The notes beneath the pieces were generated by a model, which worked only from the letters and a program-made list of their open reading frames with translations, had not been told where the DNA came from and searched no databases. Shown piece after piece: positions 16,065 through 35,571 of a stretch of 64,000 nt of DNA (its first letter is position 1; each line of letters opens with the position of its first letter). Source of the DNA: an uncultured Flavobacteriaceae bacterium (GTDB lineage: Bacteria > Bacteroidota > Bacteroidia > Flavobacteriales > Flavobacteriaceae); NCBI GenBank assembly GCA_963760375.1, contig CAVXCS010000003.1, forward strand, positions 3,590 through 67,589, written 5' to 3'. A program made the position numbers and the translations under genes.

Positions 16065-16250
16065 CTAAGCCTGTACTCCGAACTTCGACAGCAGGTTTTC
16101 CATGAGGCACCACTTGGTAAAGGCCGATTGGAATAGGTTGGCCCCAACAAAAGCAGTGAACCACAGCCAGTTGATGTTGACATAAATGGCCAATAACAAA
16201 CTGATCAATATGAAAGAGCCCGCAACGGCCCTGACGATCCTGTTTTTCAT
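16065..16250 (-). CDS. DUF2892/YgaP-like small membrane protein
   Basis: 61 aa with two TM helices and a C-terminal FTKWCLMENLL motif typical of the family. Confidence 0.7.
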   Translation of the reverse strand: MKNRIVRAVAGSFILISLLLAIYVNINWLWFTAFVGANLFQSAFTKWCLMENLLSKFGVQA

Positions 16251-16346
16251 AGTCTTGAATTTAAGGTTAATGAAACTTTGGTAACCGATCCCTTTTGGTG
16301 CGATACCGATATTACAGCGATTTGTTCTTGCCCTCCCGATGCTAAA

Positions 16347-16652
16347 TCAAAGGTACCGTTCAATGGGCACCACCACGGCCTTGACCGGGTTTTGGGTCTC
16401 CAAATGATTGTTGAACTCCTCAAGCAACCCGAACAATACCTCAATTTTATCCGCTTCGGTAAAGGAGAAGAACAAAATAGATTCGACCCCTCCCTGTTCA
16501 CTTGGAAACCAACTAGCACTGCGAAGCAAGGATGCCCGCTTCTTGAATCCATCGATATGGGACCCACTGAAGCTGCTTATGTTCGCTTTTTTGAACAGTG
16601 CCAATATTTCTTCTTCGAAATCCGCTACGGCCGTTACGATTAATAGTTTCAT
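16347..16652 (-). CDS. hypothetical protein (possibly P-II-like fold)
   Basis: 101-aa ORF immediately downstream of the RND pump gene. No motif recognised with certainty. Confidence 0.5.
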   Translation of the reverse strand: MKLLIVTAVADFEEEILALFKKANISSFSGSHIDGFKKRASLLRSASWFPSEQGGVESILFFSFTEADKIEVLFGLLEEFNNHLETQNPVKAVVVPIERYL

Positions 16653-16700
16653 TTTACTGTTGTTTTAAGGGTTTTTTTTGAGAATTTTTGCCCCGTTCAT

Positions 16701-19700
16701 TTATTCGTAATTTTTCCCTTCTATCATATAATAGATCAAAGGGACCATTATCAAGGTGAGGATGGTCGAAACGATGGCCCCTGCGACCAAGGAAATGGCC
16801 AACCCTTGAAATATGGGGTCGAACAGGATGATGGAGGCCCCGATGACCACGGCACCCGTCGTCAATAATATGGGGGTGGTTCGAACCGCACCTGCATCGA
16901 TGATCGCTTGTTTTATAGGAATTCCTTCTTTTAACCTTATTTCGATGAAATCGATGATCAGGACCGAGTTGCGCACCATGACCCCCGCAAGGGCGATCAT
17001 TCCTATGAAGGAGGTAGCGGTAAAGAAGGCCCCGAAAAGCCAATGGCCCAAGACGATCCCGATCAATGAAAGGGGTATGGCCGCCATCATAACGATCGGG
17101 GTCTTCAGGTTTTGGAACCAACCGACGATCAACATATAGATCACCACGATGACCACCATAAAAGCGATGCCAAGATCTCTAAAGACCTCCAGGGTAATCT
17201 GCCATTCTCCATCCCATTTTACCGTGAAGTCGCTTTCATCGGAGGGTTGTTCCATGTAAGATTCCTGAACCGTATACCCTTTTGGCAGCACCAATGTTTT
17301 TAATTTTTCATTCATTCCCAAAATGGCATACACCGGACTTTCCAAGGCCCCGGCCATGTCGGCGGTCAGGTAAACGACCCTTTTTTGATCCTTGCGGTAA
17401 ATGGTTTTCTGCAGGCTTGCCGTGTTCACGCTGACCAGGTCGACCACTGGAACCATGGTTCCATTTACCGATCTTATTTTGATGTTCTGGATATCCGCCA
17501 ATGAGCTCTTTTCCGCATCGTTCAAGGAAAGTACAATCCCGACCGATTCATTCGCTGTTGCATCATGAAGACCGGAAACCGGTATTTCCCTTAAAATGGA
17601 GGTCAGGGCGGTCACGATTTGTTGGGGGGCCACGCCGTTTAACATAGCTTTTTGCTTATCGACTTCCAAACGGTACTCGGTCTGCGGGGCTTCGACCATC
17701 CAATCGACATCCACAATATCGGCAGTACCCTGCAAAATAGTCTTCACCTGTTCGGCCACTTTGATCTGTTCCCCATAATCGGGTCCATAAATCTCGGCAA
17801 CAATGGTGGAGAGTACTGGGGGGCCGGGCGGCACTTCGACCACTTTAACATTGGCCCCATATTTTTGGCCGATTCTTTGTACTTCAGGGCGTACCTCCTT
17901 GGCAATGTCATGGCTTTGGGAATTTCGATCTTCTTTGTGCAGCAAGTTTACCTGGATATCGGCCATATTGCTTCCGCCCCGCAGGTCATAATGACGCACC
18001 AGGCCATTGAAGGTGATCGGCGCCGAGGTGCCGATGTAGTTTTGATAATCCACTACTTCGGGCCGGGAAGCCAGATAGAGGGAAATTTCCTTAGTCACCA
18101 TTGCGGTCCTTTCCAGGGTGGTGCCTTCGGGCATGTCCACCACGATTTGGAATTCGTTCTTATTATCGAAAGGCAACATTTTAACGGCCACCGTTTTTGT
18201 AAAGAACATGAGGATCGATCCAAGCAAGAGCACCACGGTAATGAGGATAAAGCCCCACCGTTTTGTCTTGTTGTCCAACAAAGGTTTTTCAATTTTATTA
18301 TAAATTCTATAAATGAATCCGGATTCAAAACTTTTTTCTTCCTTATGCCCCTTATCGTCTTTTTCACGCAACAAATGGTAGCCCAAATAGGGCGTAACCG
18401 TTAGCGCCACGAACAAAGAGAGCAACATGGCGATTGAAGCGCCGATTGGCATTGGGCTCATGTAGGGTCCCATCATTCCCGATACGAATGCCATGGGCAA
18501 TATGGCAGCGATGACGGTGAAAGTGGCCAAGATGGTGGGGTTGCCGACCTCGTTGATCGCAAAGAGTGCGGCCTGTTTAAACGGCAGGCGTTTCATCTTA
18601 AAGTGCCGGTGCATGTTTTCCGCAATGATGATACTATCGTCAACAACAATACCCACGACAAAGACCAACGCAAAAAGCGTGATACGGTTCAGGGTATAGT
18701 CGAACATATAATAACTGAACAAAGTAAGTGCGAAGGTCAAGGGCACTGAAAAGAAAACGACAAGCCCCCCGCGCCATCCCATGGCAAGCATCACCAAAAT
18801 GGTGACCGCCAGGATGGCAACCCCCAAATGCAACAACAGTTCGCCCACCTTGTCCGAAGCCGTTTCTCCGTAATTCCTTGAAACTTCGATATGAACCTCA
18901 GCAGGTATCAGGTGCTTTTTTAAATCTGTGACCCGTTCCAATATCTTCTCGGAAATCTTCATGGCATCGGCCCCTTTTACCTTCGCGATCGAGAGGGTCA
19001 CGGCCGCATATTCGGAACCATATTCGGAATACTTTTCGTGGTTCTGGCCATACCCAAAAGACACATAACTTTTAGGGGTGGCAGGTCCGTCCTGTATCGT
19101 TGCCACCTGTTTCAGATACACCGGGAGGTTCCGGTTCACCCCGACTACCAGATTTTCTACATCATCGACCGTTTCCAAAAAGTCGCCGGTGGTCAAGAGA
19201 TATTCGGTATCGTTTTTTACAAAACTCCCGGATTGGGCCTGTTGGTTGTTGGCCTGGATCATCTGCATAATGCCAAGGGCATCGATCCCATTTTCCGCCA
19301 TCCTATCTTTGTCCAGAATCACCTTCAATTCGCGATTTCTGCCCCCGATGGTCTTGGTCATGGCAACATTCTTTATTTTTTCCACCTCATTTTCAAGTTC
19401 CCCGGCAATTTGTTTCAGTTGGAAATCGTCATAGGAATCGCTCCAAAGGGTGATGCCCAACATGGGCACATCGTCTATGGAACGTGTTTTCACCATGGGT
19501 GCATAGATGCCATTGACAAACATATCGTCATGCTTCATCAATTCATTGTAGAGGTTCACATAGGAGCGTTCGGTGTCTTCCCCTACATAGAACTGCACGA
19601 TGATCATGGCCTGGCCGTTCATGGCCATGGTATGGAGATGTTCCACGCCTTTGATATCGGAAAGGATCTTTTCCAAGGGTTTGACCACCCTGTTCTCCAC

Positions 19701-19889
19701 TTCTTCGGGACTCGCGCCCGGATAGCCCACCATCACATCGGCCATGGGCACGATGATCTGGGGCTCTTCTTCCCTGGGGATCAAAAAAGAGCTGTACACC
19801 CCAATGATCATTAAGACGACCATCAACAAAAGGGTCAACTTCGAGTTGATGAATGCACTGGCTATTTTTCCTGATATTCCTTCGTTCAT
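16701..19889 (-). CDS. RND efflux transporter permease (AcrB/CzcA superfamily)
   Basis: About 1060-aa 12-TM protein with typical RND N-terminus MNEGISGKIASAFINSKLTLLLMV. Start moved to the ATG at 19889 to avoid overlap with the adaptor gene. Confidence 0.9.
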   Translation of the reverse strand: MNEGISGKIASAFINSKLTLLLMVVLMIIGVYSSFLIPREEEPQIIVPMADVMVGYPGASPEEVENRVVKPLEKILSDIKGVEHLHTMAMNGQAMIIVQFYVGEDTERSYVNLYNELMKHDDMFVNGIYAPMVKTRSIDDVPMLGITLWSDSYDDFQLKQIAGELENEVEKIKNVAMTKTIGGRNRELKVILDKDRMAENGIDALGIMQMIQANNQQAQSGSFVKNDTEYLLTTGDFLETVDDVENLVVGVNRNLPVYLKQVATIQDGPATPKSYVSFGYGQNHEKYSEYGSEYAAVTLSIAKVKGADAMKISEKILERVTDLKKHLIPAEVHIEVSRNYGETASDKVGELLLHLGVAILAVTILVMLAMGWRGGLVVFFSVPLTFALTLFSYYMFDYTLNRITLFALVFVVGIVVDDSIIIAENMHRHFKMKRLPFKQAALFAINEVGNPTILATFTVIAAILPMAFVSGMMGPYMSPMPIGASIAMLLSLFVALTVTPYLGYHLLREKDDKGHKEEKSFESGFIYRIYNKIEKPLLDNKTKRWGFILITVVLLLGSILMFFTKTVAVKMLPFDNKNEFQIVVDMPEGTTLERTAMVTKEISLYLASRPEVVDYQNYIGTSAPITFNGLVRHYDLRGGSNMADIQVNLLHKEDRNSQSHDIAKEVRPEVQRIGQKYGANVKVVEVPPGPPVLSTIVAEIYGPDYGEQIKVAEQVKTILQGTADIVDVDWMVEAPQTEYRLEVDKQKAMLNGVAPQQIVTALTSILREIPVSGLHDATANESVGIVLSLNDAEKSSLADIQNIKIRSVNGTMVPVVDLVSVNTASLQKTIYRKDQKRVVYLTADMAGALESPVYAILGMNEKLKTLVLPKGYTVQESYMEQPSDESDFTVKWDGEWQITLEVFRDLGIAFMVVIVVIYMLIVGWFQNLKTPIVMMAAIPLSLIGIVLGHWLFGAFFTATSFIGMIALAGVMVRNSVLIIDFIEIRLKEGIPIKQAIIDAGAVRTTPILLTTGAVVIGASIILFDPIFQGLAISLVAGAIVSTILTLIMVPLIYYMIEGKNYE

Positions 19890-19899
19890 CTTTTTTGTT

Positions 19900-20979
19900 T
19901 TATTGGATGGATATCTTGGCCCCGTTGTACAACTTGCCTTCCGCGGAAACGATATACTGCTCGCCCGCATTCAGGCCAGACAGCACCTCTATTTGATCGC
20001 CATATATTTTGCCCAAACGGAGCCATCTAAGAAGGGCCTTGTTTTGGTCACTAACTGTATAAACTCCTTTTAAACCGCCGCTTGTAACGATGGCCGATCG
20101 TGGTATGAGCACCAAGGAAGGGGCGTCGGATTTAGTACTGATAGGAATTTGGACCGTTGTAAACATTCCGGAAAGGAGTTTAACATCGGTTTTGTCAACC
20201 GCTGCCTTAACCAAATATTGTCCGCCAGTATTTTTGGCGGAAGCACTTACCTCTTTCAGTTTGCCCTTGACCGATGTACCCAATGATTTGATCAATACTT
20301 CAACGGTGGCGTCTGATTTGATCTTGGAGATTTCGCTTTCGGGCACCATGGCGACGACCTCAAAGACTCCGGGAGATTCGAGGGCCAACAAGGGCATCCC
20401 TGGATTGGCCATATCCCCGACTTCTGTAAATTTACCGGTGATCACACCAGCAAAAGGGGCCGTAATGTTGGCATAGTCAAATTGTGCGTTGATCTCATTT
20501 TTCATTTGGTTCGCCGCTTCCAATCTTGCCTTTGCCATTTCAAATCGTGTGGTCATATCGTCCATTTCCTTTTGGGAGGCACTATTTTCGGCAAAGAGGT
20601 TTTTAAAACGTTCATAATCTTTTTCTGCGTTAGCGTAGGCCGCTTTGGCCTCCGTAATTCCGGCATTGACCTGTGCGCGTTTGGCCTGTAGATCGGTATT
20701 GTTGATCGACACCAACAGTTGTCCTTTTTTGACCTTATCACCCACATTGACGTAGATCTTGCTCACTTGGCCCATCATCCGGGTGCTTAATTCGGCACTG
20801 TTTACAGCCTGTATCTTGCCGCTTACGCTTAGGAAACCGCTGCTATGGTTTTCGGTTATCCCGCTTATGGTCACTGGTACCGCATTGGCATCGTCAGCGT
20901 TGGTTTTAGTGCCCTCGCCGCTGCAGCTGGAAAGCACCAACATAGCAGTCCCAAAAAGGGTTGTATACAATTTTGTCAT
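19900..20979 (-). CDS. RND efflux periplasmic adaptor (MFP) lipoprotein
   Basis: Lipobox LVLSSC, biotinyl-lipoyl-like and coiled-coil segments (VKKGQLLVSINNTDLQAKRAQ). ATG at 20979 preferred over the GTG at 21000. Confidence 0.85.
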   Translation of the reverse strand: MTKLYTTLFGTAMLVLSSCSGEGTKTNADDANAVPVTISGITENHSSGFLSVSGKIQAVNSAELSTRMMGQVSKIYVNVGDKVKKGQLLVSINNTDLQAKRAQVNAGITEAKAAYANAEKDYERFKNLFAENSASQKEMDDMTTRFEMAKARLEAANQMKNEINAQFDYANITAPFAGVITGKFTEVGDMANPGMPLLALESPGVFEVVAMVPESEISKIKSDATVEVLIKSLGTSVKGKLKEVSASAKNTGGQYLVKAAVDKTDVKLLSGMFTTVQIPISTKSDAPSLVLIPRSAIVTSGGLKGVYTVSDQNKALLRWLRLGKIYGDQIEVLSGLNAGEQYIVSAEGKLYNGAKISIQ

Positions 20980-21071
20980 GATTTTGTTTTTATAGTTCAC
21001 TTTAGGCTATTTAAGCGTTTGTTTCTTCTGAATGTTCAAATTTTTGGTGGTATTGTAAAAGGGCTATGGCG

Positions 21072-22376
21072 TTATTCCTTTATTAAAAATTCCAAATAGG
21101 CCAGTGCATAATTATGCTGGAATATGGTAGCATAATATTCCAGTTGTTTCTGACTGTATTGTGATTCTGCCATAAGAAGGTCATTGGTCTTTTCCAGACC
21201 TTGTTCAAAGCGATTGCTGCGGATACGCAACGACTCCTCGGATTGTTGCAAGGCCAATTGGGTCAGTTTTAATTTGTTATTGGCATCTTGAAGCCCTCTT
21301 TTGGCCTTGTTGAGTTCCAGTTGGCTTTCCGCCCTATATTGCTTTAACTGAAATCTTGATTTTTCAAATTCGGCCTTGCTCTTTTGTGCCCGGCCGAAAC
21401 GCTTGCTGCCCTCGAAAAGGTTCCACTTCAATTCTGCCCCGAAGAGATAGCCGTTCGCGGCGCCTTGGAATATTTCGTCGTCGTGCAGCTCGTAAGTGCC
21501 AAAGGCGTTCAAGCGGGGCAAAAAGGACATTTGGTCGGCCTTGTACATTTGTTTATAGGCTTCCGATGCGGCGTTCAAGGCCTGGATATCGTTTCTGTTC
21601 TCCGGCAAGCCTTCCACCTTAAGTTCTTGGTTCACGACCATTAGGGAATCGCTGGGCTTTAAGATTTGATCATTGTGGTCATCCATCAGAACGGACAAAT
21701 AATTCGAGGCATTCAGGATGTTGCTCTTGGCATACTGCAGCTGATTATCTATTTCGGTTGCCCGTACCTCAACCGACAGGAGATCTGATTTCTGCAAATA
21801 GCCTTGTCGAAAGTTGTTATTGGCGATACGCATGTTTTCCATGGCGGTCGCTTTGGTCTTTTCCAGAACTTCAACCGTTTTATAGGCCAATTGCAATTGC
21901 ATATAGGCCTTTTCGACTTCCAAGCCAATATATTCTTGGGTGCGTTCCGCTTGTAGGGCCGTGGCATCCCATTTGGCCTTGGCCGCCTTTCTTTGGTATA
22001 TGCCGTCGAAGTTCAACAGGGGTTGCTGTACTTCCATCCTCGTGGCGAAATCCTCGATTTGTCGAGGCGCATTTAATGAAGCAGGATCAAAATCGGCTTG
22101 GGTCAGTATGGCCTGGTTGAGTTTCGACCCAAAGGCCATCAAAGGGTTCGTAGTGGCGATACCGGTATGTGAGATACTGATATTGGGCAACAAGACGGCA
22201 TTGGTCTGGTTGTAGTCGCCCTTGGCCATCAGCACCTCCTGTTGCGACATTTTAAGGGTGCCATTGCCCGTTTTCACCTTGTCCATCACTTCAGTCTTTG
22301 AAATCAAAACGGTTTCCTGTGCTGACATTGACAGGGAAAGAATTGGTAAGGCAAACAGGAACATTATATTTTTCAT
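21072..22376 (-). CDS. TolC-family outer membrane efflux protein
   Basis: 434 aa with a signal peptide and two TolC-type coiled-coil repeats. It is first in the tolC-MFP-RND operon. Confidence 0.85.
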   Translation of the reverse strand: MKNIMFLFALPILSLSMSAQETVLISKTEVMDKVKTGNGTLKMSQQEVLMAKGDYNQTNAVLLPNISISHTGIATTNPLMAFGSKLNQAILTQADFDPASLNAPRQIEDFATRMEVQQPLLNFDGIYQRKAAKAKWDATALQAERTQEYIGLEVEKAYMQLQLAYKTVEVLEKTKATAMENMRIANNNFRQGYLQKSDLLSVEVRATEIDNQLQYAKSNILNASNYLSVLMDDHNDQILKPSDSLMVVNQELKVEGLPENRNDIQALNAASEAYKQMYKADQMSFLPRLNAFGTYELHDDEIFQGAANGYLFGAELKWNLFEGSKRFGRAQKSKAEFEKSRFQLKQYRAESQLELNKAKRGLQDANNKLKLTQLALQQSEESLRIRSNRFEQGLEKTNDLLMAESQYSQKQLEYYATIFQHNYALAYLEFLIKE

Positions 22377-22407
22377 CTTGGATCTGTTATTTTCTTTTAA
22401 TCTGGGG

Positions 22408-22451
22408 TAAAAGTAGACCTAAAGGGGATGTTGGTCGGTAACAATGGTTAC
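22408..22451 (-). promoter_or_regulatory. motif-A operator plus -7 box (promoter of tolC-MFP-RND operon)
   Basis: GGTAACAATGGTTACC with core GTAAC-N4-GTTAC at 22438-22451. Minus-strand TACTTTTA at 22415-22408 starts 29.5 bp from the centre. Confidence 0.65.
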
Positions 22452-22566
22452 CAAGGCGATTTTAGCATCGTTATGAAACCAAGTGGTGCATGGTAGTGAT
22501 TGAATATTCAATTGGGGAACCTTAAGATGGCCAATAAAGGCCGAACTATTATCATCTTTTTGGGGT

Positions 22567-23451
22567 TTAAAACCAATAGCCGATACCTGCCGAAAAATAG
22601 AAAACGGTTTCCAAGTCTTCCTTGATCACCGTATCTTCGGTCGTGATCGTAGCACTGCTTTGTGGAAAGGCCAAAACGGGCGAAAAGGAGAAAATGAATT
22701 GTTCGTGGTAGTATTGCATGGGCAGGCCTAGCGCTACATTTAAAAAATTGAATTCCGATGCTTCCTTCAATTCCACCGAGGTAGGAATCGACGGTGTTGT
22801 GCCAACGGTCCCCTTGCCTTGTCCTTTTCTATTGCCCAGACGACTGGTACTATAGTATTCCTGATAAAAATATTGTGTACCGGCTTGCAGCGTAATGGAA
22901 GGGCCGATCAAAAAGTTCTTGTCACTGCTATAGATAATACGGTCGAACACGATCCCAGCAAAAATGTCGGCAGAACTATCGCTGTTAAAGTAAGTGCTGG
23001 CCATTAACGATACTTCCAACGCTTTGAGGTCATAGCTCAAAAAACCGGATATATCACCCAATATTTCCGACTGTACATTATAACTGTCTTTGTTGAAGAA
23101 ATAGGCGGTCGCCGAAAGGCCACCGTTGAATTTTTCGGAACTGGACAGGTAACCGGCAGTGACCAAAAACAGATCTATCCGTTGTTCCCCCGAACCGACG
23201 AGGTAGGAGGCCGAAGCATCGGCAAAAAATCCCGATCGATCATAATAGCCCAGTGAAGGAAAAATATAAGGGGCGGCAATGGAATCTCGCCTGCCCATGA
23301 AAACGGCGTCATTGCGAAAGCTCACATCTGCTAGAAAAAAAGATTCCACGTCCGCGGGTTTTTCCTTGGCGGAATTTTTTCGCGGTTGTGCCATGAGGCC
23401 CAAAGACATAAATAGGAGAAATATCAAGACTGTGGTTGACCGGGTTCTCAT
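22567..23451 (-). CDS. hypothetical outer-membrane beta-barrel protein
   Basis: Signal peptide, alternating amphipathic beta-strand pattern and a C-terminal aromatic residue (...GIGYWF). Confidence 0.55.
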   Translation of the reverse strand: MRTRSTTVLIFLLFMSLGLMAQPRKNSAKEKPADVESFFLADVSFRNDAVFMGRRDSIAAPYIFPSLGYYDRSGFFADASASYLVGSGEQRIDLFLVTAGYLSSSEKFNGGLSATAYFFNKDSYNVQSEILGDISGFLSYDLKALEVSLMASTYFNSDSSADIFAGIVFDRIIYSSDKNFLIGPSITLQAGTQYFYQEYYSTSRLGNRKGQGKGTVGTTPSIPTSVELKEASEFNFLNVALGLPMQYYHEQFIFSFSPVLAFPQSSATITTEDTVIKEDLETVFYFSAGIGYWF

Positions 23452-23546
23452 TTTAAAGAAAATTGAGATTCATGAAGAATATGGGCCGTACGGATCACAG
23501 GTAGGACAAAATACCGTTTTCCGGACAGCCCGTGAAACTGGGCTTA

Positions 23547-24218: not shown

Positions 24219-24256
24219 TGTATATGGATTTAAATTAATTCTGTTTAATACTGTGG

Positions 24257-24299
24257 CAAATGTACCGGACCATGCCCGTGTAGAAAATGATATAGGTCA
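24257..24299 (-). promoter_or_regulatory. motif-B operator plus -7 box (promoter of 24218..23547, probably also 23451..22567)
   Basis: AATGATATAGGTCATG with core at 24288-24299. Minus-strand perfect TACATTTG at 24264-24257 starts 29.5 bp from the centre. Confidence 0.7.
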
Positions 24300-24336
24300 T
24301 GAAACCCTATATTTTATTGATGTTTCCAAGGGTTTT

Positions 24337-25112: not shown

Positions 25113-25117
25113 ACGGC

Positions 25118-27378: not shown

Positions 27379-28724
27379 AACCAACCCTTGCCCTTGCTTC
27401 CCTGTTATGCCTGATGTCGAATTTCGCCCTGTCCCAGGATAAGGTCGAAACAAAAGATAAAGGGAAGCTGTCCGGACAATGGAGAACCTATTTCATGGGG
27501 ACAGTCAACAACGGAAATTTAAAGGATTTTTATGCGCTGGCTTCCGGTGGCAAGATCAAGTATCAATATTCGTTCAATGACAAATTGGAACTGGGGGCAG
27601 CGGTTTACAATGCCACCAACCTGGGTCTACAAGATCTTACGCTGGCCGATCCAACAACCGGTAGGTTGAGCCGTTATGAAGAAGGTCTGTTCAATAGGCT
27701 CGACCTTGCCAACGATGCGGTATTCTTATTGGGGGAGCTATATGCAAAAGTCAAAATACCGAAACATGAATTCACCTTGGGTCGAATGAAAGTAAACTCC
27801 CCTTTGCTGAACCCCCAGGACGGAAGGATGATACCCACTCTTGTACAAGGTCTCTGGTACGGCTATCGACCCAACACCTCCAATGTCTTGCAATTTGGGG
27901 TGTTTAACCAAATAGCCCCCCGATCGACCGGTGGATTTTACGGCATAGGGGAAAGTATCGGCACTTACCCTGTGGGGAGGAACCCGGCGGGCCAAACAAG
28001 TGGCTATGCGGGGAACACCGATTCCGATTATTTGGTCTTGTTCAATACGGAATTGAAGGTCACGGAAACCGTTCGACTCGATTTTTGGAACTTGTATGCA
28101 GACAATGTTTCGAACAGCACCTATTTGAGGCCCAAAATGCAGTTGAACCAAAAATGGAACCTGGAAATGGAATGGTTGCACCAAAACAAAGTGGGCAATG
28201 GGGGCAATGCCGTTGATTCATTGCGCTATTTTACGAGCAAATCTTCAGACATTTTGGGCATTAGGATGAATTATCGATCGAATAGATCGGAAATCTCCCT
28301 GGCCTATAACAGGATTTTCGCCCATGGGCAATTTCTTTCGCCCCGGGAATGGGGAAGGGAAGACCTGTTCAGTTTTCAGAAAAGGGAACGCAGCGAGGGG
28401 TCTGGAGACAACCATGCCTTGGTCTTATACTATGACGATCACTTTGGCCTTGGCAAAGGCAAGGACCAAATTCAAGGTATTTTCAGTGTTGGCAAACATT
28501 GGAAGCCCTCTGTTTTAGATCCCCGATTGAACAAATATGCCATTCCGGACTATACCCATATCAACATTGACCTGTTTTTTAAGTTTGAAAAGCTAAAGAA
28601 CCTTCAACCCGAACTGTTGTTGGTGACGAAGATCGCCAATGGCGACTTCCCCGATAATCCGAATTATTACTTCAACAAGACCGATATGTTCCATATCGAT
28701 ATCATTTTGAATTACAATTTTTAG
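27375..28724 (+). CDS. outer-membrane porin (OprD-like)
   Basis: Signal peptide, GRMKVNSPLLNPQDGRMIPTLVQG segment, and a beta-barrel pattern ending in ...ILNYNF. It overlaps the cytochrome gene stop by 4 nt. Confidence 0.6.
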   Translation: MKPTLALASLLCLMSNFALSQDKVETKDKGKLSGQWRTYFMGTVNNGNLKDFYALASGGKIKYQYSFNDKLELGAAVYNATNLGLQDLTLADPTTGRLSRYEEGLFNRLDLANDAVFLLGELYAKVKIPKHEFTLGRMKVNSPLLNPQDGRMIPTLVQGLWYGYRPNTSNVLQFGVFNQIAPRSTGGFYGIGESIGTYPVGRNPAGQTSGYAGNTDSDYLVLFNTELKVTETVRLDFWNLYADNVSNSTYLRPKMQLNQKWNLEMEWLHQNKVGNGGNAVDSLRYFTSKSSDILGIRMNYRSNRSEISLAYNRIFAHGQFLSPREWGREDLFSFQKRERSEGSGDNHALVLYYDDHFGLGKGKDQIQGIFSVGKHWKPSVLDPRLNKYAIPDYTHINIDLFFKFEKLKNLQPELLLVTKIANGDFPDNPNYYFNKTDMFHIDIILNYNF

Positions 28725-28746
28725 CATTGCAAAAAGGTTCAAAAAA

Positions 28747-28773
28747 AAGATGGAACCTGTATGGTTCCATCTT
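28747..28773. terminator. bidirectional intrinsic terminator between convergent porin and sqr genes
   Basis: An 11-bp stem, AAGATGGAACC / GGTTCCATCTT, with a 5-nt loop. It is flanked by an A-run (28741-28748) and T residues. Confidence 0.75.
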
Positions 28774-28800
28774 TCGCATGATAAGGGGGAAAGAAGGGGA

Positions 28801-30063
28801 TTAAACGTCCTGACCTTTCATCATTTTATTCCAGTACAGATAGGGGAGTATATATTTTTTAAGGATCCAAAGCCTCCAATGCTCCTTGGCGCTGTCAAAG
28901 ACCAGCATCTGCTTTAATTTGGGGTCGGGCGTAAAATTGTTTTGATAGTCGAATTCCCCGAGGACCATTTTGCCATAACCGGTGACCAGGGGGCAAGACG
29001 AATACCCGTTGTAAGATTTATTGCTGGCTTCTTGGTGATCCATCAGTTTCATGAGGTTGTCTACCACTACCGGCACTTGCTTTCTGATCGCCGCCCCCGT
29101 TTTGGCCGTGGGCAGTGCCGCAACATCGCCCAACCCAAAAATATTGGTGAAATGGTTGTGCTGCATCGAATGGTGGTCAACATCGAGCCATCCGGCATCA
29201 TTCACCAAAACCGATTCTTTCACAAACTTGGGCGCTGTTTGGGGAGGCGCTAGGTGCAACATGTCGAAAGGGATCTCGATTACGGCCTCCCCGGTCATTT
29301 TTTCTCCCAAGGGATTGTTCTCGGCGATCACACTTTGATTTTCACCCGTTGCCGTGTTTTTGAAGTAGATTATCTTCTTCTCCGCGTCTATTTTAAAGGG
29401 GGCATAAAAGGGTTTGAAATGGATGTCGTAACGTTCGAGGACCTTTGTCAGGGTGGTCTTTATTTCCTTCACGCCGAAAATGACCGATCCCGGGGTGGCA
29501 AAGATGACATTGGTTTTCTTGGCCAGCCCATGTTTTCTGAAATAATCGGCCGCCAAATAGGCAGTTTTCTGAGGCGCGCCCCCACACTTGATGGGTGTGG
29601 TGGGTTGGGTAAATACGGCGTTGCCGCCCTTGAAATTTTTGATGACCTCCCAGGTATGTTTGGGGTCGGTATAATTACTGCATACCACGCCCTTGCCGAT
29701 GGCTTCCGTTAGGCCTTCGATGAGCGAAGTATCCATCACCAGACCTGGGGCGACCACCAAATAATCATAGGTGATCGTGCCGGTTGACTTGGTGGTTACC
29801 GCATTTTTTTTGGGGTCGAAGCCGGTGGCATAGTCCTTGATCCAATTGACCCCTTTGGGCATCACCGAGGCCATGGGCCTGGCGGTTTTATCGTAGTCAT
29901 AAGTGCCTGCGCCCACCAGGGTCCAAGCAGGTTGATAGTAGTGCGTATCGGCCGGCTCAATGATGGCGATGTCCAAACTTTTATTGCGCTTCAGGAGTTG
30001 CGCGGCCGTCATGATGCCCGCGGTTCCCCCGCCTATAATGAGAATTTGATGATGTGCTTTCAT
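28801..30063 (-). CDS. sqr: sulfide:quinone oxidoreductase, type II (SQRDL-like)
   Basis: FAD motif IIGGGTAG. Conserved cysteines lie in PIKCGGAPQK and YSSCPLVTG. 420 aa. Confidence 0.85.
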   Translation of the reverse strand: MKAHHQILIIGGGTAGIMTAAQLLKRNKSLDIAIIEPADTHYYQPAWTLVGAGTYDYDKTARPMASVMPKGVNWIKDYATGFDPKKNAVTTKSTGTITYDYLVVAPGLVMDTSLIEGLTEAIGKGVVCSNYTDPKHTWEVIKNFKGGNAVFTQPTTPIKCGGAPQKTAYLAADYFRKHGLAKKTNVIFATPGSVIFGVKEIKTTLTKVLERYDIHFKPFYAPFKIDAEKKIIYFKNTATGENQSVIAENNPLGEKMTGEAVIEIPFDMLHLAPPQTAPKFVKESVLVNDAGWLDVDHHSMQHNHFTNIFGLGDVAALPTAKTGAAIRKQVPVVVDNLMKLMDHQEASNKSYNGYSSCPLVTGYGKMVLGEFDYQNNFTPDPKLKQMLVFDSAKEHWRLWILKKYILPYLYWNKMMKGQDV

Positions 30064-30106
30064 GGGTTCTTTTGTTATTGTTTGTCGATTGTTTTCTTAA
30101 TGTTTT

Positions 30107-30150
30107 TAAAGTTAAGGAAGCCTTCCTTGATTTTCAGTAACTTAGGTTAC
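30107..30150 (-). promoter_or_regulatory. motif-A operator plus -7 box (promoter of sqr)
   Basis: AGTAACTTAGGTTACA with core at 30137-30150. Minus-strand TAACTTTA at 30114-30107 starts 29.5 bp from the centre. Confidence 0.65.
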
Positions 30151-30182
30151 ACAGCCCATAGTATTTTAAAAAATAGGTGGGG

Positions 30183-30893
30183 TCAGGATTCTAAAAGAAG
30201 CTTTCCGCTTTGGTCTGAGAGGATAAAGTCAGCGGCCATTTTGGCGTGTAATCGGGTAGTGGCCAGTAGGGGCAGGGCTCCCTCTTCGGGCCCTATCAGC
30301 AGTGGAAGTTCCGTACAGCCCAAAATAATGCCATCGGCACCCTTTTCCTTAAGCGATCGTATCTGTTCCAAAAAGAAGGTTTTGGCCTCGGGGGTAAACT
30401 TTCCTTGGGTCAGTTCGTTGGAAACATATTGATGGCAGGTATCGATATATTCGGCTTCCGGTATAATCGTCTCGATGCCATGGTTTTTTTTGAGCTGGGT
30501 CTGGATAAAACCTTTGGTCATGGTGGGCCTGTTCCCCAAAAGCCCCAGTCTTTTGAGTCCCAAACGGGCGGCCTCGCGCCCTGTTGCGTCAGCGATGTGC
30601 AGGATGGGAATTTTGATTTTGGGTTGCACAAAATCATAGACCATATGTGGGGTATTGGCACAGATAACGATGGCCCGTGCCCCGGCATTTTGCAATATTG
30701 TGGCCACCTCCAGGTAGGTGTCGTTGATTTTCTTTACCTCCTGCGCCCGCATCAATTCAATGTTCAGGCTGAAAAGTATCAGGGGCGGGTTGCCCTGCGG
30801 CCCAATGGTTTCGCCTACCATCTCGTTGATCATTCTATAATAAACGATGGTGGAATGCCACGACGTGCCGCCAATAAGTCCGATTAGCCTCAA
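30183..30893 (-). CDS. aspartate/glutamate racemase family protein
   Basis: IGLIGGTSWHSTIVYY and GADGIILGCTELPLL motifs. The apparent start is TTG. Confidence 0.8.
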   Translation of the reverse strand: MRLIGLIGGTSWHSTIVYYRMINEMVGETIGPQGNPPLILFSLNIELMRAQEVKKINDTYLEVATILQNAGARAIVICANTPHMVYDFVQPKIKIPILHIADATGREAARLGLKRLGLLGNRPTMTKGFIQTQLKKNHGIETIIPEAEYIDTCHQYVSNELTQGKFTPEAKTFFLEQIRSLKEKGADGIILGCTELPLLIGPEEGALPLLATTRLHAKMAADFILSDQSGKLLLES

Positions 30894-30918
30894 ATCCTTT
30901 TCATTTTAGAGGGGCTCA

Positions 30919-31917
30919 TTAAGGGTTGTTTTCATCGAAGACGATGCTCCAAATGCCCCTGACCTGGTTCACATCATACCCTACGGCCAGGTCTTTTGGG
31001 TAAAGTTTCTTCAAGGTGGCCATGGTGGCCGGTGCGATTTGTTCATCAGGGGTTCCATGACATTGCAGGCACATGGCGTTGGTGGTGATGGGGTAATAAA
31101 AATGCACCTCCCCTTCGACGGTATTTACAATAGGTTCGACTTCCCCGCCCGTTGCCAAGGCCTTTTTAAAAGAATCGATGTAGCCCAATTCTTCCGAACT
31201 GGCCTTATTCTTGGGATTTCTTGGTTTATCCGATACCCTTTTGATGACCGCATTGTTCATTATCGACACACTGTCGGTTAGTCCGGTAGCCTCGTTATGG
31301 CAGAAACCAATGGCCCCTACCGTACCTTTTTCCTGAACGGCCTTCATCAAATTTGAGCCCAATTGGCTTTTCGCGGCCGATGCATAATCGAGCCCCATCT
31401 TGGTATACCGGGCCTGGGCCCTTTTTGCGGCCATACCCATGCCCTTGTTTTTTCCTTTTTGCTTCCCGTATTGCTCTTGGTAGCGGCCGTCGTACCAAGT
31501 GGGTTTCTCAATGTCATAATCATAAAGGTACGCGGCAACCTGGGCAAGGGCATCTTCCGGATAGGGCATATAGGGCATGGTGCCAAATTGTTTATGGGCA
31601 CCGGGCATTTTGGTTTCTTGTTCAGGATCGTTCATCCATCGGATGAGGTCTTCCGTAAACGTTTCCTTGGTGGTATTCGAATCGATATAATGACGTTTGA
31701 TGGCCACCATGGGCGGTGCGATCATCGCCTCTTGGGAGGCTTTGGGATTATGGCATTGATAACATTCCGTTTCCAAGACCCTTTTGCCGGGATGCGTATC
31801 TTTATCCTGTACCGTTTCTTGCCAGGCATCGGATACGATGGGTACCGGATCCGATTTCGTGTTTTCCCTACAATTGACGAGGACCAAAAAAACAAGCAGC
31901 GATGCGATACGTTTCAT
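30919..31917 (-). CDS. c-type cytochrome / DUF3365-like lipoprotein
   Basis: Lipobox LVLVNC. Haem motifs CYQCH and CLQCH. Start moved to the ATG at 31917. Confidence 0.65.
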   Translation of the reverse strand: MKRIASLLVFLVLVNCRENTKSDPVPIVSDAWQETVQDKDTHPGKRVLETECYQCHNPKASQEAMIAPPMVAIKRHYIDSNTTKETFTEDLIRWMNDPEQETKMPGAHKQFGTMPYMPYPEDALAQVAAYLYDYDIEKPTWYDGRYQEQYGKQKGKNKGMGMAAKRAQARYTKMGLDYASAAKSQLGSNLMKAVQEKGTVGAIGFCHNEATGLTDSVSIMNNAVIKRVSDKPRNPKNKASSEELGYIDSFKKALATGGEVEPIVNTVEGEVHFYYPITTNAMCLQCHGTPDEQIAPATMATLKKLYPKDLAVGYDVNQVRGIWSIVFDENNP

Positions 31918-32020
31918 AATTTCCAGATTTTGATAGGGTACCATGACCGAGGTATCGACATAGGATTACCCCAGTGTTCTCCAAACCCTTTGAAGTCGGT
32001 TCATCGGCAAAGGTGAAAAA

Positions 32021-32392
32021 TTACATTCGCCCTGCCAAAGCCGATTCGTTGTTCCATCTTTGGTAACCGCCTTTCAGGTCATAAATTTCTGAAAATCCCA
32101 TCGCCAACAATCTCTTTGCTGCATTTTTGCTCCGAGATCCCGATCGGCAATAGAGGTAAACCGGTTTGTTCTTGTTCAATTTCTCAAAGGATTTATTAAA
32201 ATTCGCCCCATCGAAAAAATCGATGTTGAGGGCATTTTTGATATGGCCACTGCGATACTCACGGGCCGTGCGCACATCCACGAGTTGCACTTTTTTCCCG
32301 GAAACCGCGGTAGCATAGGCCATGGGGTCCAATATTTTGATTTTATCCGACGGTGCTTGTTTTGTTCCGAATAAGTTACTGAAAAACGACAT
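32021..32392 (-). CDS. rhodanese-domain sulfurtransferase
   Basis: Active-site loop YCRSGSRS. Start moved to the ATG at 32392 (MSFFSNLFG). Confidence 0.8.
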   Translation of the reverse strand: MSFFSNLFGTKQAPSDKIKILDPMAYATAVSGKKVQLVDVRTAREYRSGHIKNALNIDFFDGANFNKSFEKLNKNKPVYLYCRSGSRSKNAAKRLLAMGFSEIYDLKGGYQRWNNESALAGRM

Positions 32393-32528
32393 ATAATCCT
32401 GTATTGAGGTTCTTTGGCGGTAATGAAAGGGAAACGGCACCTATTACGATAACCGTTTCCCTAAACAACCAACCTAACAAAACCAATTTATTTTACAAAT
32501 TTTTTTGGTGTAAATCCGTGCTTGCGCC

Positions 32529-33944
32529 CTATAGCATGGTAGTAGGCTCCACATATTTCGATTTTTTGATATCTGTTTTCTTCAACGCGTCGAACCCGCC
32601 GATCACATCCACAAAATCTTCCCAGCCTCTTTGCTTGAGGATCGATGCGGCAACCATGCTGCGATATCCCCCTGCACAATGCAATACGAAAGGTTTGTCT
32701 TTCGGGAATTGCGATAAATGCTGGTTGATCTCATTCAAGGGAACGTTGATGGCACCGATGACGTGCTCCGAATCGAACTCGCTCTTTTTTCTAACGTCAA
32801 TGACCAAAACGTCATTGGTTCTGTATTTCTTTCCAAAAGCCTCGGGCGTGATCCTATCCACGTTTTCAAAGGGTTTCTTGGCTTTTTTCCAGCTTTCGAA
32901 ACCGCCCTCTAAAAATCCTACGGTTCGGTCGTAACCCACCCTCGATAAACGGGTGATGGCCTCTTCCTCCTTGCCCGGATAAGTGATCAAAAGGATGGGC
33001 TGTTTCACATCGGGGATCATTTCCCCTACCCATTGGGCGAAACTGCCCTCGAGCCCGATGTTGACACTGTTGGGGACAAAGCCTTTGGCAAAGTCCTCGG
33101 CATCCCGGGTATCCAACATCAACGCATCGGTTTCATTGGCGACCGCTTCGAATGCCTCGGGCGATAAAGGTTTTTCGCCACGCTCCATAACCGTATCGAG
33201 ACTTTCGTAACCCTTGATGTTCATCAGCACATTCTGCGGAAAATATCCCGGAGGTGCGGTCAAACCGGTCAAAAGTTCTTTGATGAACTCTTCTTTGGTC
33301 ATATCTGGTCTGAGGGCATAGTTCGTTTTCTTTTGATGGCCCAGGGTATCGGAGGTTTCCTTGCTCATTTTCTTGCCACAGGCAGATCCTGCACCATGGT
33401 TGGGATATACGATAAGGTCGTCGGACAAGGGCATTATTTTGTTTCTCAGGGAATCGTACAAGTACCCGGCCAATTTTTCCTCGGTAAGTTCCGACACCAC
33501 GTGTTGTGCCAAATCGGGTCTTCCCACATCCCCAATAAATAGGGTATCCCCGGTAATGATGCCATGTTCTTTCCCGTTTTCATCGATCAACAGGTAAGTG
33601 GTGCTTTCCATGGTGTGTCCCGGTGTATGCAATACCTTGACCTTATAGTCGCCCACTTTGAAAATTTGGTTGTCTTTTGCGACCAAAGCTTCATATCCGG
33701 GCTTCGCGGTAGGCCCGAATACGATTTGGGCTCCCGTTTTTTTCTGCAGGTCGAGATGGCCACTGACAAAGTCGGCATGAAAATGGGTTTCAAAAACATA
33801 AGTTATCTTGGCCTTATCTTTCTTGGCCCTATCGATATAGGGCTGTACCTCACGTAGGGGGTCAAATATGGCAGCTTCTCCCTTGCTTTCCAAATAATAG
33901 GCCGCGTGGGCCAAACATCCGGTGTATATCTGTTCTATCTTCAT
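32529..33944 (-). CDS. MBL-fold persulfide-dioxygenase-like protein fused to two rhodanese domains
   Basis: The metallo-beta-lactamase motif ETHFHADFVSGH is followed by rhodanese modules. The last has the active-site loop HCAGGYRS. Confidence 0.85.
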   Translation of the reverse strand: MKIEQIYTGCLAHAAYYLESKGEAAIFDPLREVQPYIDRAKKDKAKITYVFETHFHADFVSGHLDLQKKTGAQIVFGPTAKPGYEALVAKDNQIFKVGDYKVKVLHTPGHTMESTTYLLIDENGKEHGIITGDTLFIGDVGRPDLAQHVVSELTEEKLAGYLYDSLRNKIMPLSDDLIVYPNHGAGSACGKKMSKETSDTLGHQKKTNYALRPDMTKEEFIKELLTGLTAPPGYFPQNVLMNIKGYESLDTVMERGEKPLSPEAFEAVANETDALMLDTRDAEDFAKGFVPNSVNIGLEGSFAQWVGEMIPDVKQPILLITYPGKEEEAITRLSRVGYDRTVGFLEGGFESWKKAKKPFENVDRITPEAFGKKYRTNDVLVIDVRKKSEFDSEHVIGAINVPLNEINQHLSQFPKDKPFVLHCAGGYRSMVAASILKQRGWEDFVDVIGGFDALKKTDIKKSKYVEPTTML

Positions 33945-33970
33945 TTTATTATAATTTTTGATTTATAGGT

Positions 33971-34014
33971 TAAATGTAAGGACGGTTAAAAACCTGTACA
34001 GTAACATTGGTTAC
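33971..34014 (-). promoter_or_regulatory. motif-A operator plus -7 box (promoter of PDO-rhodanese operon)
   Basis: AGTAACATTGGTTACA with core at 34001-34014. Minus-strand TACATTTA at 33978-33971 starts 29.5 bp from the centre. Confidence 0.65.
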
Positions 34015-34067
34015 AAAACTCGAAGTTTATCATGGTCAAGCGCATGATGAAGATCAGTTTTTCGAAT

Positions 34068-34868
34068 TTAGAATAGTTCTTTGAACAAAATGTAAATCCC
34101 CATGAGCAACACGAACCATCCAAAAGATTTTTTAAGCCGGTTGCCATCGATAAACTTGTTGAGCCAAACGCCCAAGAATATGCCTACCACCGAGAGGGCC
34201 GTAAATCGAAACAGAAACGCCCAGTCGATGTCGAGGTTTTCCACATCACCTATAAAACCGATCAAAGACTTTATCGCGATGATCAGCAGGGAAGTGGCGA
34301 CCGCTTTTTTCATGGGTAGTTTGGCCAACATCACAAGGGCGGGAATGATCAGGAAACCGCCCCCTGCGCCCACGATACCGGTTATGACCCCAACCACAAA
34401 TCCTTCGAGAACGATCAAGGGAAAATTGTATTCGACCACGGCATTATCGTCATCACAGTTTTTGCACTTGCCCTTGATCATTGAATAGGAGGCCAAGAGC
34501 ATGATCAGGGCAAAGAACACCATGATGCCGATATCCTTGGTCACCAAAAACCCGCCTACCGTAAACAGTTCGTCGGGTATGGCGGGCACCATGTATTTTC
34601 TGGTGGCATACACGGCGATAAATGCGGGAATGGCAAAGACGATGGCCGTCTTAAAGTCGACCAATCCCTTTCTGATATTTTGAATCGCCCCGACCAGCGA
34701 GGAGACCCCCACTACGAACAGGGAATAGGCCGTGGCCACGACAGGGTTGAGGTATAATAGGTAAACAAAAACGGGAACCGTAAGAATAGATCCTCCACCA
34801 CCGATCAAGCCCAATACTACCCCAATCAGCAAGGCCCCGACATAGCCCAAAATTTCCAAGAATTCCAT
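34068..34868 (-). CDS. TauE/SafE-family sulfite/anion exporter
   Basis: 266-aa polytopic protein with duplicated GGGGS/GAGGGF motifs (LIGGGGSILTVP, IVGAGGGFLIIP). Confidence 0.85.
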   Translation of the reverse strand: MEFLEILGYVGALLIGVVLGLIGGGGSILTVPVFVYLLYLNPVVATAYSLFVVGVSSLVGAIQNIRKGLVDFKTAIVFAIPAFIAVYATRKYMVPAIPDELFTVGGFLVTKDIGIMVFFALIMLLASYSMIKGKCKNCDDDNAVVEYNFPLIVLEGFVVGVITGIVGAGGGFLIIPALVMLAKLPMKKAVATSLLIIAIKSLIGFIGDVENLDIDWAFLFRFTALSVVGIFLGVWLNKFIDGNRLKKSFGWFVLLMGIYILFKELF

Positions 34869-34887
34869 AAGTGGTTTTATTTTGGGT

Positions 34888-34931
34888 CAAATGTACGGGG
34901 CTTGGAAAGCAACGGCAGTAACCTATGTTAC
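34888..34931 (-). promoter_or_regulatory. motif-A operator plus -7 box (promoter of tauE-like gene)
   Basis: AGTAACCTATGTTACA with core at 34918-34931. Minus-strand perfect TACATTTG at 34895-34888 starts 29.5 bp from the centre. Confidence 0.7.
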
Positions 34932-34938
34932 AGAGCGA

Positions 34939-35571
34939 TCAAAGATCCAGGATGGTGATGTGGTTTCGGTTGAGCGCTATCTTGCCCATATTTTCCAGTT
35001 TTTTGAGCAAACGGGATATGACCACACGTGAGGTGTGCAGTTCGTAAGCGATTTCTTGATGGGTACTGTGGATGATGTGGTCTTTGTTGACCTTGGCCTT
35101 TTTGCCTAGGTATTTCAATAAGCGTTCGTCCATTTTCAGGAACGCGATACTGTCGACCGTTTCCAGCATTTCATTAAGGCGGTTATGGTAGCTCTGCAGC
35201 ACAAAGTTGCGCCAAGTTTTATAGTTGGTCAACCATTCCTCCATTTTTTGAACGGGCACCATGATCAATGTAACATCGGTCTCGGCAATGGCCCTTATTT
35301 CACTTTTGGTATGCCCCAGGCAACAGGTAAGGGTCATGGCGCAGGTATCGCCATTCTCGAGGAAATAGAGCAGTAATTCGTCCCCTTGGTCATCTTCGCG
35401 TAGAATTTTGATCACGCCCGATAACAGCAGCGGCATCGATTTGATGTACTCCCCGATTTCCATCAAGGTATCCCCCTCAGGAATTTCCTTAAAGAGGCCA
35501 ATATGGCTGATTTCCTCCAACAATGCTCCCTCGAACAAGCTTCCATAACGTTCGGTCAGTTCTTTGATCAT
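34939..35571 (-). CDS. Crp/Fnr-family transcriptional regulator (Crp3)
   Basis: A cNMP-type beta-roll plus a C-terminal HTH (STHQEIAYELHTSRVVISRLLKKLENMG). A Cys-X5-Cys-Cys motif in the roll (GDTCAMTLTCCLG) is encoded at 35320-35343. Confidence 0.85.
   Translation of the reverse strand: MIKELTERYGSLFEGALLEEISHIGLFKEIPEGDTLMEIGEYIKSMPLLLSGVIKILREDDQGDELLLYFLENGDTCAMTLTCCLGHTKSEIRAIAETDVTLIMVPVQKMEEWLTNYKTWRNFVLQSYHNRLNEMLETVDSIAFLKMDERLLKYLGKKAKVNKDHIIHSTHQEIAYELHTSRVVISRLLKKLENMGKIALNRNHITILDL

Follow-up and report, generated by a model that had tools for sequence, protein, structure and literature searches.

The known bacterial regulators that respond to sulfide or persulfide are repressors of the CsoR, ArsR or MarR type, or a sigma-54 activator, and none is known from Bacteroidota. 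This study concerns a stretch of 64,000 nucleotides from an uncultured marine Flavobacteriaceae bacterium (assembly GCA_963760375.1, contig CAVXCS010000003.1, positions 3,590 to 67,589; hereafter the window), in which a 210-residue stand-alone Crp/Fnr-family regulator, here called Crp3 (34939..35571, minus strand; Pfam cNMP_binding and HTH_Crp_2), lies at the edge of a block of sulfur and efflux genes whose promoters share the palindrome GTAAC-N4-GTTAC. The preferred reading, to which I assign a probability of roughly 0.7, is that Crp3 activates, from class-II-type sites, a regulon for the detoxification of sulfide and reactive sulfur. CstR (CsoR family), SqrR and BigR (ArsR family) and FisR resemble Crp3 in their core regulon of sqr, persulfide dioxygenase (PDO)-rhodanese, rhodanese and tauE-like genes, and in a conserved cysteine pair as candidate sensor. 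Crp3 differs from CstR, SqrR and BigR in having a Crp/Fnr fold rather than a CsoR or ArsR fold and in probably activating where those repress, and from FisR in its unrelated fold and in probably depending on sigma-A rather than sigma-54. Full-text literature searches on Crp/Fnr proteins in connection with sulfur genes (sqr, tauE, persulfide dioxygenase, rhodanese) or with sulfane sulfur or polysulfide found no Crp/Fnr sulfur regulator, and two recent reviews of sensors of sulfide and reactive sulfur species (RSS) list no Crp/Fnr sensor (PMC9774590, PMC13467558). PDOs of the CstB type (type III) occur almost universally among Bacteroidetes, with 194 in 185 genomes, and activity is known for the one from Zunongwangia (PMC5702731).

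Within its own superfamily, Crp3 shares with E. coli CRP the fold, the R180/R185 contacts and the register of the half-sites (TGTxA-N6-TxACA), but it has lost cAMP ligands (E72->M79, R82->K89), carries three cysteines in the phosphate-binding cassette, and is associated with Bacteroidota sigma-A promoters (-33/-7 instead of -35/-10) and a narrow, dedicated regulon. In work by Ebright and colleagues from 1984 and 1987, mutants of CAP (E. coli CRP) with Val, Leu or Lys in place of Glu181 reportedly gained recognition of TGTAA; the Crp3 family resembles these mutants in that Val or Glu at position 181 tracks A or G at the same operator base. The canonical class II activation position of CRP and FNR is centred at -41.5, and the Crp3 promoters are like class II promoters in this centre, as predicted from the -7 box, and in a weak upstream element that the operator overlaps. 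FNR proper has an N-terminal cysteine cluster plus a central cysteine for [4Fe-4S], an E--SR helix and the operator TTGAT-N4-ATCAA. The palindrome consensus itself is not new: Rodionov et al. (2005) predicted GTAACnnnnGTTAC for the HcpR2 proteins, predicted regulators of the hybrid-cluster-protein gene hcp, from Bacteroides, Clostridium, Thermotogales and Treponema (PMC1274295). HcpR2 belongs to the same superfamily as Crp3, and in CRP numbering both retain Arg180 but no longer have Glu181. HcpR2, however, has Pro181, co-occurs with and controls hcp and is thought to respond to nitrosative stress, whereas Crp3 has Val181 and a cysteine cluster in the pocket, and its sites precede sulfide-oxidation genes and never hcp in the loci examined.

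Results

Pattern scans for the palindrome covered the window and the loci of relatives, and window sites were oriented by the downstream gene before the spacing to the promoter box was read. Five perfect copies of GTAAC-N4-GTTAC were recovered, at the same positions as in a preliminary description of this DNA (22438, 24340, 30137, 34001 and 34918); 0.01 were expected, and none of 100 dinucleotide shuffles gave five. With up to one mismatch there were nine sites against 0.59 expected, comprising, besides the perfect ones, the three listed in that description (25099, 26102 and 26252) and a fourth at 40893. This fourth site was rejected as an operator and is probably a chance match, because it falls inside coding sequence, its spacer is rich in G+C and no promoter box is present at 29.5 bp. 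Among the other eight, a TAnnTTTG-like box (TAnnTTTG is the -7 box of the Bacteroidota sigma-A) began exactly 29.5 bp away from the centre of the palindrome in six, oriented like the gene downstream, just as had been described: it was perfect at 34918 and had one mismatch at 22438, 26102, 26252, 30137 and 34001. Boxes with up to one mismatch occur at 0.7% of window positions, which gives P ~4e-12 for six of eight at a single offset. When the scan was relaxed to allow two mismatches each in site and box, the window yielded no further convincing sites, and a sigma-70 promoter and terminator scan (38 hits against 32 expected) was uninformative for this Bacteroidota DNA.

In a map of transcription start sites of Flavobacterium psychrophilum the -7 box spans -12 to -5 (PMC9723704), so a palindrome centred 29.5 bp upstream of it has a predicted centre at -41.5. 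This class II feature would hold for six of the eight window sites and for 163 of 186 sites in relatives. The operator flanks in the aligned sites are asymmetric: the distal flank is T in 87%, and the promoter-proximal positions +7.5 and +8.5 are T (71%) and G (64%) rather than the palindromic A. This proximal T-G resembles the remnant of a -33 TTG that has merged with the operator; the palindrome overlaps the -33 element, which has a degenerate form (GTTAC-TG, with CTG instead of TTG). Three features of the sequence, namely a spacing kept to the base pair across genera, the degenerate -33 element and the predicted centre at -41.5, make it quite probable that Crp3 acts by activation.

The palindrome was then followed through related genomes, ~160 of which were compared overall. 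In 80 Flavobacteriaceae loci with a Crp3 ortholog, drawn from many genera and amounting to 1.43 Mb, there were 186 perfect sites against ~1.6 expected from base composition, 114 of them 0.6-4 kb downstream of the crp3 start. The preliminary description had called for such footprinting and had named absence of the motif ahead of sqr, PDO and tauE orthologs as the outcome that would count against it; the motif turned out to be conserved there, with a perfect site at most 150 bp upstream of sqr in 9/9 cases, of PDO-rhodanese in 46/63, of tauE in 29/48 and of tolC in 3/3, as opposed to 0/23 for control or operon-internal genes (pfkB, M50, RND, MFP, racemase). A box with up to one mismatch lay exactly at +29.5 in 163 of the 186 sites and at each other offset in ~5. 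The genes linked to these 163 promoters were PDO-rhodanese (53), TauE (29), YeeE/YedE (11), rhodanese (10), SQR (9), crp3 itself (9), cytochrome (7), 1-Cys peroxiredoxin (5), SulP (4) and TolC (2), with a small zinc-ribbon membrane protein and a fatty-acid-hydroxylase-family protein as further targets. Palindromes stood directly beside crp3 in ~70 of the 80 genomes, and ahead of crp3 itself in nine.

Which protein reads the palindrome was addressed through the wider Crp3 family (227 representative clusters at E < 1e-30), which divides into members with an S-R-V-V and members with an S-R-E-V recognition helix (hereafter R-V and R-E). The helix of Crp3 is S-R182-V183-V-I-S-R187, and R182, V183 and R187 align with R180, E181 and R185 of E. 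coli CRP. For comparison, 80 metagenome loci with R-E relatives were collected; here the regulator likewise adjoins tauE, PDO, sqr and rhodanese genes and the +29.5 geometry is unchanged, while the operators read TGTGA(C/T)-N4-(G/A)TCACA. Half-sites before sulfur genes were TGTAA in 187 of 196 cases in R-V loci and TGTGA in 80 of 100 in R-E loci (Fisher 2e-46). Distant R-V members served as a partial control (a Chitinophagales metagenome-assembled genome, Parasediminibacterium, Ekhidna of the Cytophagales and one further contig): all but Parasediminibacterium, that is three of four, had perfect GTAAC-N4-GTTAC sites, placed before MFS/YgaP_TM-tauE-PDO, SulP-PDO-YeeE or a sulfite-oxidase-like gene, and Parasediminibacterium had only a hybrid GTGAC-N4-GTTAC site before its efflux operon. 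R180 and E181 have been found to correlate with operator bases in Crp/Fnr regulators (PMC1274295). Because helix position 181 and the operator base change together among relatives (Val with TGTAAC, Glu with TGTGAC/T), Crp3, which the preliminary description had proposed as the candidate binder, is very probably the protein that binds TGTAAC-N4-GTTACA.

Some family members showed further variation. In Ekhidna lutea (locus L164, 12023..13308), a perfect site with its 29.5-bp box lies ~220 bp upstream of a gene for a sulfite-oxidase-like molybdoenzyme (Oxidored_molyb and Mo-co_dimer); if this gene is the target and no open reading frame (ORF) intervenes, the regulon of this lineage reaches sulfite oxidation. 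A second, single-cysteine R-E paralogue, 36-40% identical to Crp3, was present in L007, L009, L010, L041, L044, L052 and L075, and the helix S-R-E-V-I-S-R was found in six of these seven (all but L007). Near the paralogues of L010, L044, L052 and L075 there were only hybrid GTAAC-N4-GTCAC sites, near that of L041 both a hybrid and a full GTGAC-N4-GTCAC site, and within 4 kb of that of L009 only perfect GTAAC-N4-GTTAC. In Dokdonia pacifica (L052, 13984..20496), the hybrid sites lie ahead of small membrane ORFs that resemble DUF2892 and of a gene for a PEMT-like methyltransferase, followed by cydAB, which encodes cytochrome bd, a sulfide-resistant oxidase.

Crp3 is ~75% identical across Flavobacteriaceae genera including Maribacter, Pricia, Tamlana, Bizionia, Dokdonia, Aequorivita and Polaribacter. 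It consists of an N-terminal cNMP-binding-like beta-roll (PF00027, 1.7e-10, residues 28-116; beta strands 26-104 in the AlphaFold2 (AF2) model), a long helix of the kind used for dimerisation (118-161 in the model) and a C-terminal Crp-type winged helix-turn-helix domain (HTH; PF13545, 6.4e-10; 171-194 in the model). The top Foldseek matches were all Crp/Fnr proteins, so model and fold search only confirm the family. The protein carries merely generic names in all sources and falls below the cut-off of every NCBIfam model, with 51 bits against a cut-off of 266 for the CRP model. As CRP proper it was rejected on A78, M79, K89 and S90 at the cAMP-contact positions G71, E72, R82 and S83 and on its R-V helix, and as FNR proper on the lack of any cysteine in the N-terminal 76 residues, the R-V-V-I-S-R helix and the operator TGTAAC-N4-GTTACA. 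The best match in both sequence (8e-15) and fold was PDB 3dv8 (EUBREC_1222 of Eubacterium rectale, structural genomics), which has an R-E helix and differs in being a Firmicute protein of ~23% identity. The earlier claims that crp3 is the only stand-alone Crp/Fnr gene of the window, and that its recognition helix is unlike those of the other Crp-type proteins, were borne out: the two other Crp-type genes (5737..6807, minus strand; 55817..56869, plus strand) encode an N-terminal receiver domain and, when aligned to CRP, a T-E..R helix as opposed to S-R-V-V. A tblastn search of the window with Crp3 found no paralogue, the receiver-Crp genes, detected by Pfam, being too divergent for tblastn.

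C77, C83 and C84 are invariant in Flavobacteriaceae Crp3. C77 was near-universal among the 150 representative family sequences examined; by an alignment-based count, C83 was kept in most sulfur-linked members and C84 in most members. C77 corresponds roughly to CRP I70 and C83/C84 roughly to F76/E77, which places them on the helix of the phosphate-binding cassette (AF2 helix 77-83), and 3dv8, the nearest solved structure, aligns cysteines to both C77 and C83.

The promoters and genes of the block are described from the crp3 end, and all are on the minus strand except the tsdA-porin unit. The tauE promoter has the perfect operator cTGTAACATAGGTTACTg (34918..34931), with 56.5 bp from centre to ATG, and the perfect -7 box TACATTTG (34888..34895); it precedes a gene for a TauE/SafE-family anion (sulfite) exporter (34068..34868; Pfam TauE, 1e-44), and most of the 80 loci have an orthologous operator in the interval from crp3 to tauE. 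A perfect operator at 34001..34014 with the box TACATTTA (33971..33978) serves a four-gene operon (30183..33944; Pfam and PDB matches) of a CstB-like persulfide dioxygenase that carries two rhodanese domains (32529..33944; PDB 3tp9, 5e-69; 3r2u, 3e-55), a rhodanese (32021..32440; Pfam), a protein combining cytochrome c with a Tll0287-like domain (30919..31944; Pfam) and an Asp/Glu racemase-family protein (30183..30893; Pfam). The sqr promoter follows with a perfect operator (30137..30150) and the box TAACTTTA (30107..30114), upstream of a type II sulfide:quinone oxidoreductase (SQR; 28801..30063; E 2.5e-98 to human SQOR structures).

On the plus strand, the one-mismatch operator GTAATGTATGTTAC (26252..26265) and the box TATATTCG (26288..26295) form the promoter of a TsdA-like dihaem thiosulfate dehydrogenase (26347..27378; PDB TsdA, 4e-49; Pfam SoxA-TsdA_cyt-c) and an OprD-like porin (27375..28724; Pfam OprD); a TsdA-linked palindrome was also present in the relative locus L032. 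Back on the minus strand, the one-mismatch operator GTAACAAAAGTGAC (26102..26115) and the box TAATTTTA (26072..26079) precede a lipoprotein gene (25184..26047), and a perfect homologue of this site lies at position 13200 of locus L022. This gene had been called Spy-like; its palindrome and box hold, but the LTXXQ match behind that name is weak and misses Pfam's cut-off (E 1e-3), and the longest ORF, 25184..26224, is overcalled, since the lipoprotein signal peptide (MKIRKTT...SC) begins at 26047. With the start at 26047 and not 26224, site 26102 and its box are intergenic. The DUF2202 gene (24409..25044; Pfam) has the one-mismatch operator GTAACAAAAGTTGC (25099..25112) and the two-mismatch box GAAATTCG (25069..25076). 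A near-identical promoter module, GTGTAACAAAAGT(T/G)(G/A)CTGTAGG, is found at 25060..25125 (DUF2202) and 26063..26128 (LTXXQ), L022 holding a perfect version, and this near-identity suggests a duplicated promoter.

The perfect operator at 24340..24353 keeps full symmetry in its flanks (ATGTAAC..GTTACAT) and lacks a box at 29.5 bp; downstream of it lie a DUF6799 gene (23547..24218) and a 294-residue outer-membrane-type ORF (22567..23451). These two genes had been left out of the preliminary list of targets, most of whose other assignments were confirmed by Pfam, NCBIfam or PDB matches. The last perfect operator (22438..22451), with the box TACTTTTA (22408..22415), heads a five-gene efflux operon (16065..22376; Pfam, NCBIfam): a TolC-like outer-membrane protein (21072..22376), an MFP (19900..21000), an RND permease (16701..19970) and a YgaP-like_TM (DUF2892) protein (16065..16250), all with Pfam or NCBIfam matches, and a 101-residue ORF (16347..16652) without a Pfam family. 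The whole operon is kept in Parasediminibacterium paludis (Chitinophagaceae; L163, 617..7612), directly upstream of the regulator gene, with 29% identity between the 101-residue ORFs and with a site 55.5 bp before tolC; besides L163, tolC-linked palindromes were seen in L022, L039 and L072.

At the DUF6799 promoter the -41.5 position is taken not by site 24340 but by a different palindrome, ATGAC-N4-ATCAT (24287..24300), which lies 53 bp downstream of 24340 and at 29.5 bp from a second perfect copy of the box TACATTTG (24257..24264). The same composite arrangement recurs in L022 (15234..15340) with an offset of 41 bp, and both offsets come close to whole helical turns, a spacing also seen where a promoter takes two activators. 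This composite of two palindrome types suggests that the DUF6799 promoter may receive input from two Crp-type regulators. Palindromes of the family (A/C)TGA(C/T)-N4-(A/G)TCAT are also centred 29.5 bp upstream of TAnnTTTG-like boxes elsewhere in the window, sometimes on both strands (1323, 4718, 13872, 24287, 36709, 47518, 48671, 51094, 56907, 57854, 60974 and 62531). They are probably the "motif B" of the preliminary description, and the receiver-cNMP-HTH_Crp proteins are candidate binders.

Two observations concern the surroundings of crp3. An M50 peptidase gene with CBS domains (35575..36660) ends 3 bp ahead of crp3, a pairing also present in L002 and L011; because of this short gap the two are probably co-transcribed, and no GTAAC palindrome was found upstream of the pair in the window. 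The gene upp (uracil phosphoribosyltransferase) and crp3 bracket a variable block (window 15244..35571; also L005, L021, L024, L046, L049, L051, L072 and L073), which holds nothing in Sediminicola, 3-5 kb of sulfur genes in Aequorivita and ~19 kb in the window.

Discussion

In the mechanism proposed here, which draws in part on knowledge of the family, a Crp3 dimer would bind TGTAAC-N4-GTTACA and, centred at -41.5 over the degenerate -33 element, would recruit RNA polymerase in class II fashion. The regulon would serve sulfide and reactive-sulfur detoxification through type II SQR, CstB-like PDO-rhodanese, rhodanese, a c-type cytochrome, TsdA with its porin, and TauE, and in the genome of the window would additionally include the TolC-MFP-RND-orf101-YgaP_TM operon and three periplasmic or outer-membrane genes. 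The signal would be sulfane sulfur (persulfide or polysulfide), sensed by C77 together with C83/C84 in the pocket that holds the cAMP phosphate in CRP.

Several observations weigh against this proposal. Two window sites break the geometry, 24340 by lacking a box at 29.5 bp and 25099 by its two-mismatch box, and three Sediminicola loci keep the regulator but have no site within 20 kb. The counts behind the co-variation of Val/Glu with A/G are phylogenetically non-independent, and the code has exceptions: 19 of 100 half-sites in the R-E loci are hybrid or TGTAAC, and the R-V locus L163 is hybrid (GTGAC..GTTAC). An operator that overlaps the -33 element could in principle repress. As for the sensor, the cysteine pattern fails to separate sulfur-linked from unlinked members cleanly; ten sulfur-adjacent members, at least seven of them paralogues beside a full Crp3 cluster, have only C77. 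The AF2 model of Crp3 is moderate (pLDDT 75, with loop 85-89 below 50), and a signal of envelope or metal stress would likewise be compatible with the RND, LTXXQ and DUF2202 members.

The nature of the signal is accordingly the least firm part. Sulfane sulfur was deduced from the content of the regulon and the conservation of the cysteines, and cysteine-based sensing of reactive sulfur by Crp3 is put forward tentatively, at a little under an even chance. Regulator, operator and regulon might be as proposed while the signal is sulfite or thiosulfate bound non-covalently in the pocket, or a metal, haem or iron-sulfur (Fe-S) cofactor on the cysteines. K89 and the nearly invariant S90 at the positions of CRP R82 and S83 would suit an oxyanion, many members of the regulon handle sulfite or thiosulfate (TauE, TsdA, YeeE/YedE, SulP and the sulfite-oxidase-like gene of L164), and three invariant cysteines could ligate a cluster; the cluster of Bacillus subtilis Fnr is held by three Cys and an Asp, and CooA uses Cys/His in the same region. 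The RND, LTXXQ and DUF2202 genes of the window also count on this side. Yet CstR, SqrR and BigR, which sense persulfide through thiols, have a matching core regulon of sqr, CstB-like PDO, rhodanese and tauE, His87 is not conserved, many relatives keep only two cysteines, and an O2-labile cluster would be odd for inducing an O2-dependent dioxygenase, so that a signal of this kind appears unlikely, if far from negligible. An O2-labile switch of the Fnr type is likewise unlikely, because the main target, PDO, depends on O2.

Activation is preferred over the reading in which Crp3 binds the palindrome but represses, occluding the -33 element until the signal releases it, in the manner of CstR, SqrR and BigR. 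That the operator overlaps the -33 region would allow this, and most known sulfide and RSS regulators do repress (reviewed in PMC9774590, PMC13467558). Occlusion, however, needs no spacing exact to the base pair, and yet 29.5 bp is kept in 163 of 186 sites; the CTG in place of TTG resembles activator-dependent promoters; the centre coincides with the class II position known from the family; and the site at the DUF6799 promoter sits near whole helical turns upstream of -41.5. Taken with these features, repression is improbable.

It is more improbable still that Crp3 is a mere neighbour and that another factor, either a receiver-Crp protein or one encoded elsewhere, reads the palindrome. Binding by Crp3 is deduced from sequence only, the window encodes two further proteins with a Crp-type HTH, and the second palindrome family shares the geometry; but the operator co-varies with residue 181 of the Crp3 family itself, the sites cluster directly beside crp3 in most genomes and in nine precede it, and the T-E..R helices of the receiver-Crp proteins lack the Arg that pairs with the conserved G of TGT. 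Weakest of all is the idea that these sites belong to an HcpR2-type nitrosative-stress regulon, since, for all that the consensus GTAACnnnnGTTAC is identical (PMC1274295), no Hcp or prismane family occurs among the 163 promoter-linked targets of relatives, position 181 is Val and not Pro, the block contains no genes related to nitric oxide (NO), and a PDB sequence search with Crp3 (E <= 0.01) returned no chain annotated HcpR; Crp3 was rejected as an HcpR2 on its lack of hcp linkage and of Pro181.

The new element that these comparisons support is a putative Crp/Fnr subfamily whose regulon is dedicated to sulfur detoxification and whose Bacteroidota promoters have an architecture of class II type. 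Going further, the Crp3 family may be a previously unrecognised class of sulfide and reactive-sulfur sensors, the first among Crp/Fnr proteins and widespread in Bacteroidota, in which a C-x5-C(C) motif in what was once the nucleotide pocket is persulfidated or bridged by sulfane sulfur, turning the dimer into a class II activator that acts on sqr, PDO, tauE and a dedicated RND efflux operon; I hold this larger claim as possible, somewhat short of even odds.

The outcome is a ready-made regulon with its operator and a candidate sensor motif, and it makes a sharp mutational prediction, namely that V183E should switch recognition from TGTAAC to TGTGAC. The Crp3 family would thus be a natural replay of the classic specificity experiments on Glu181 of CAP, and its promoters would be among the few well-defined activator-dependent architectures for the unusual sigma-A (-33/-7) promoter of Bacteroidota. 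Genes that have gone unstudied gain a context of sulfur stress, among them the TolC-MFP-RND-orf101-YgaP_TM operon, DUF6799, DUF2202 and the Tll0287-cytochrome. Flavobacteria are major marine heterotrophs; if the proposal is true, the Crp3 system is widespread in Flavobacteriales, Cytophagales and Chitinophagales and would therefore govern much of the heterotrophic sulfide oxidation in the sea.

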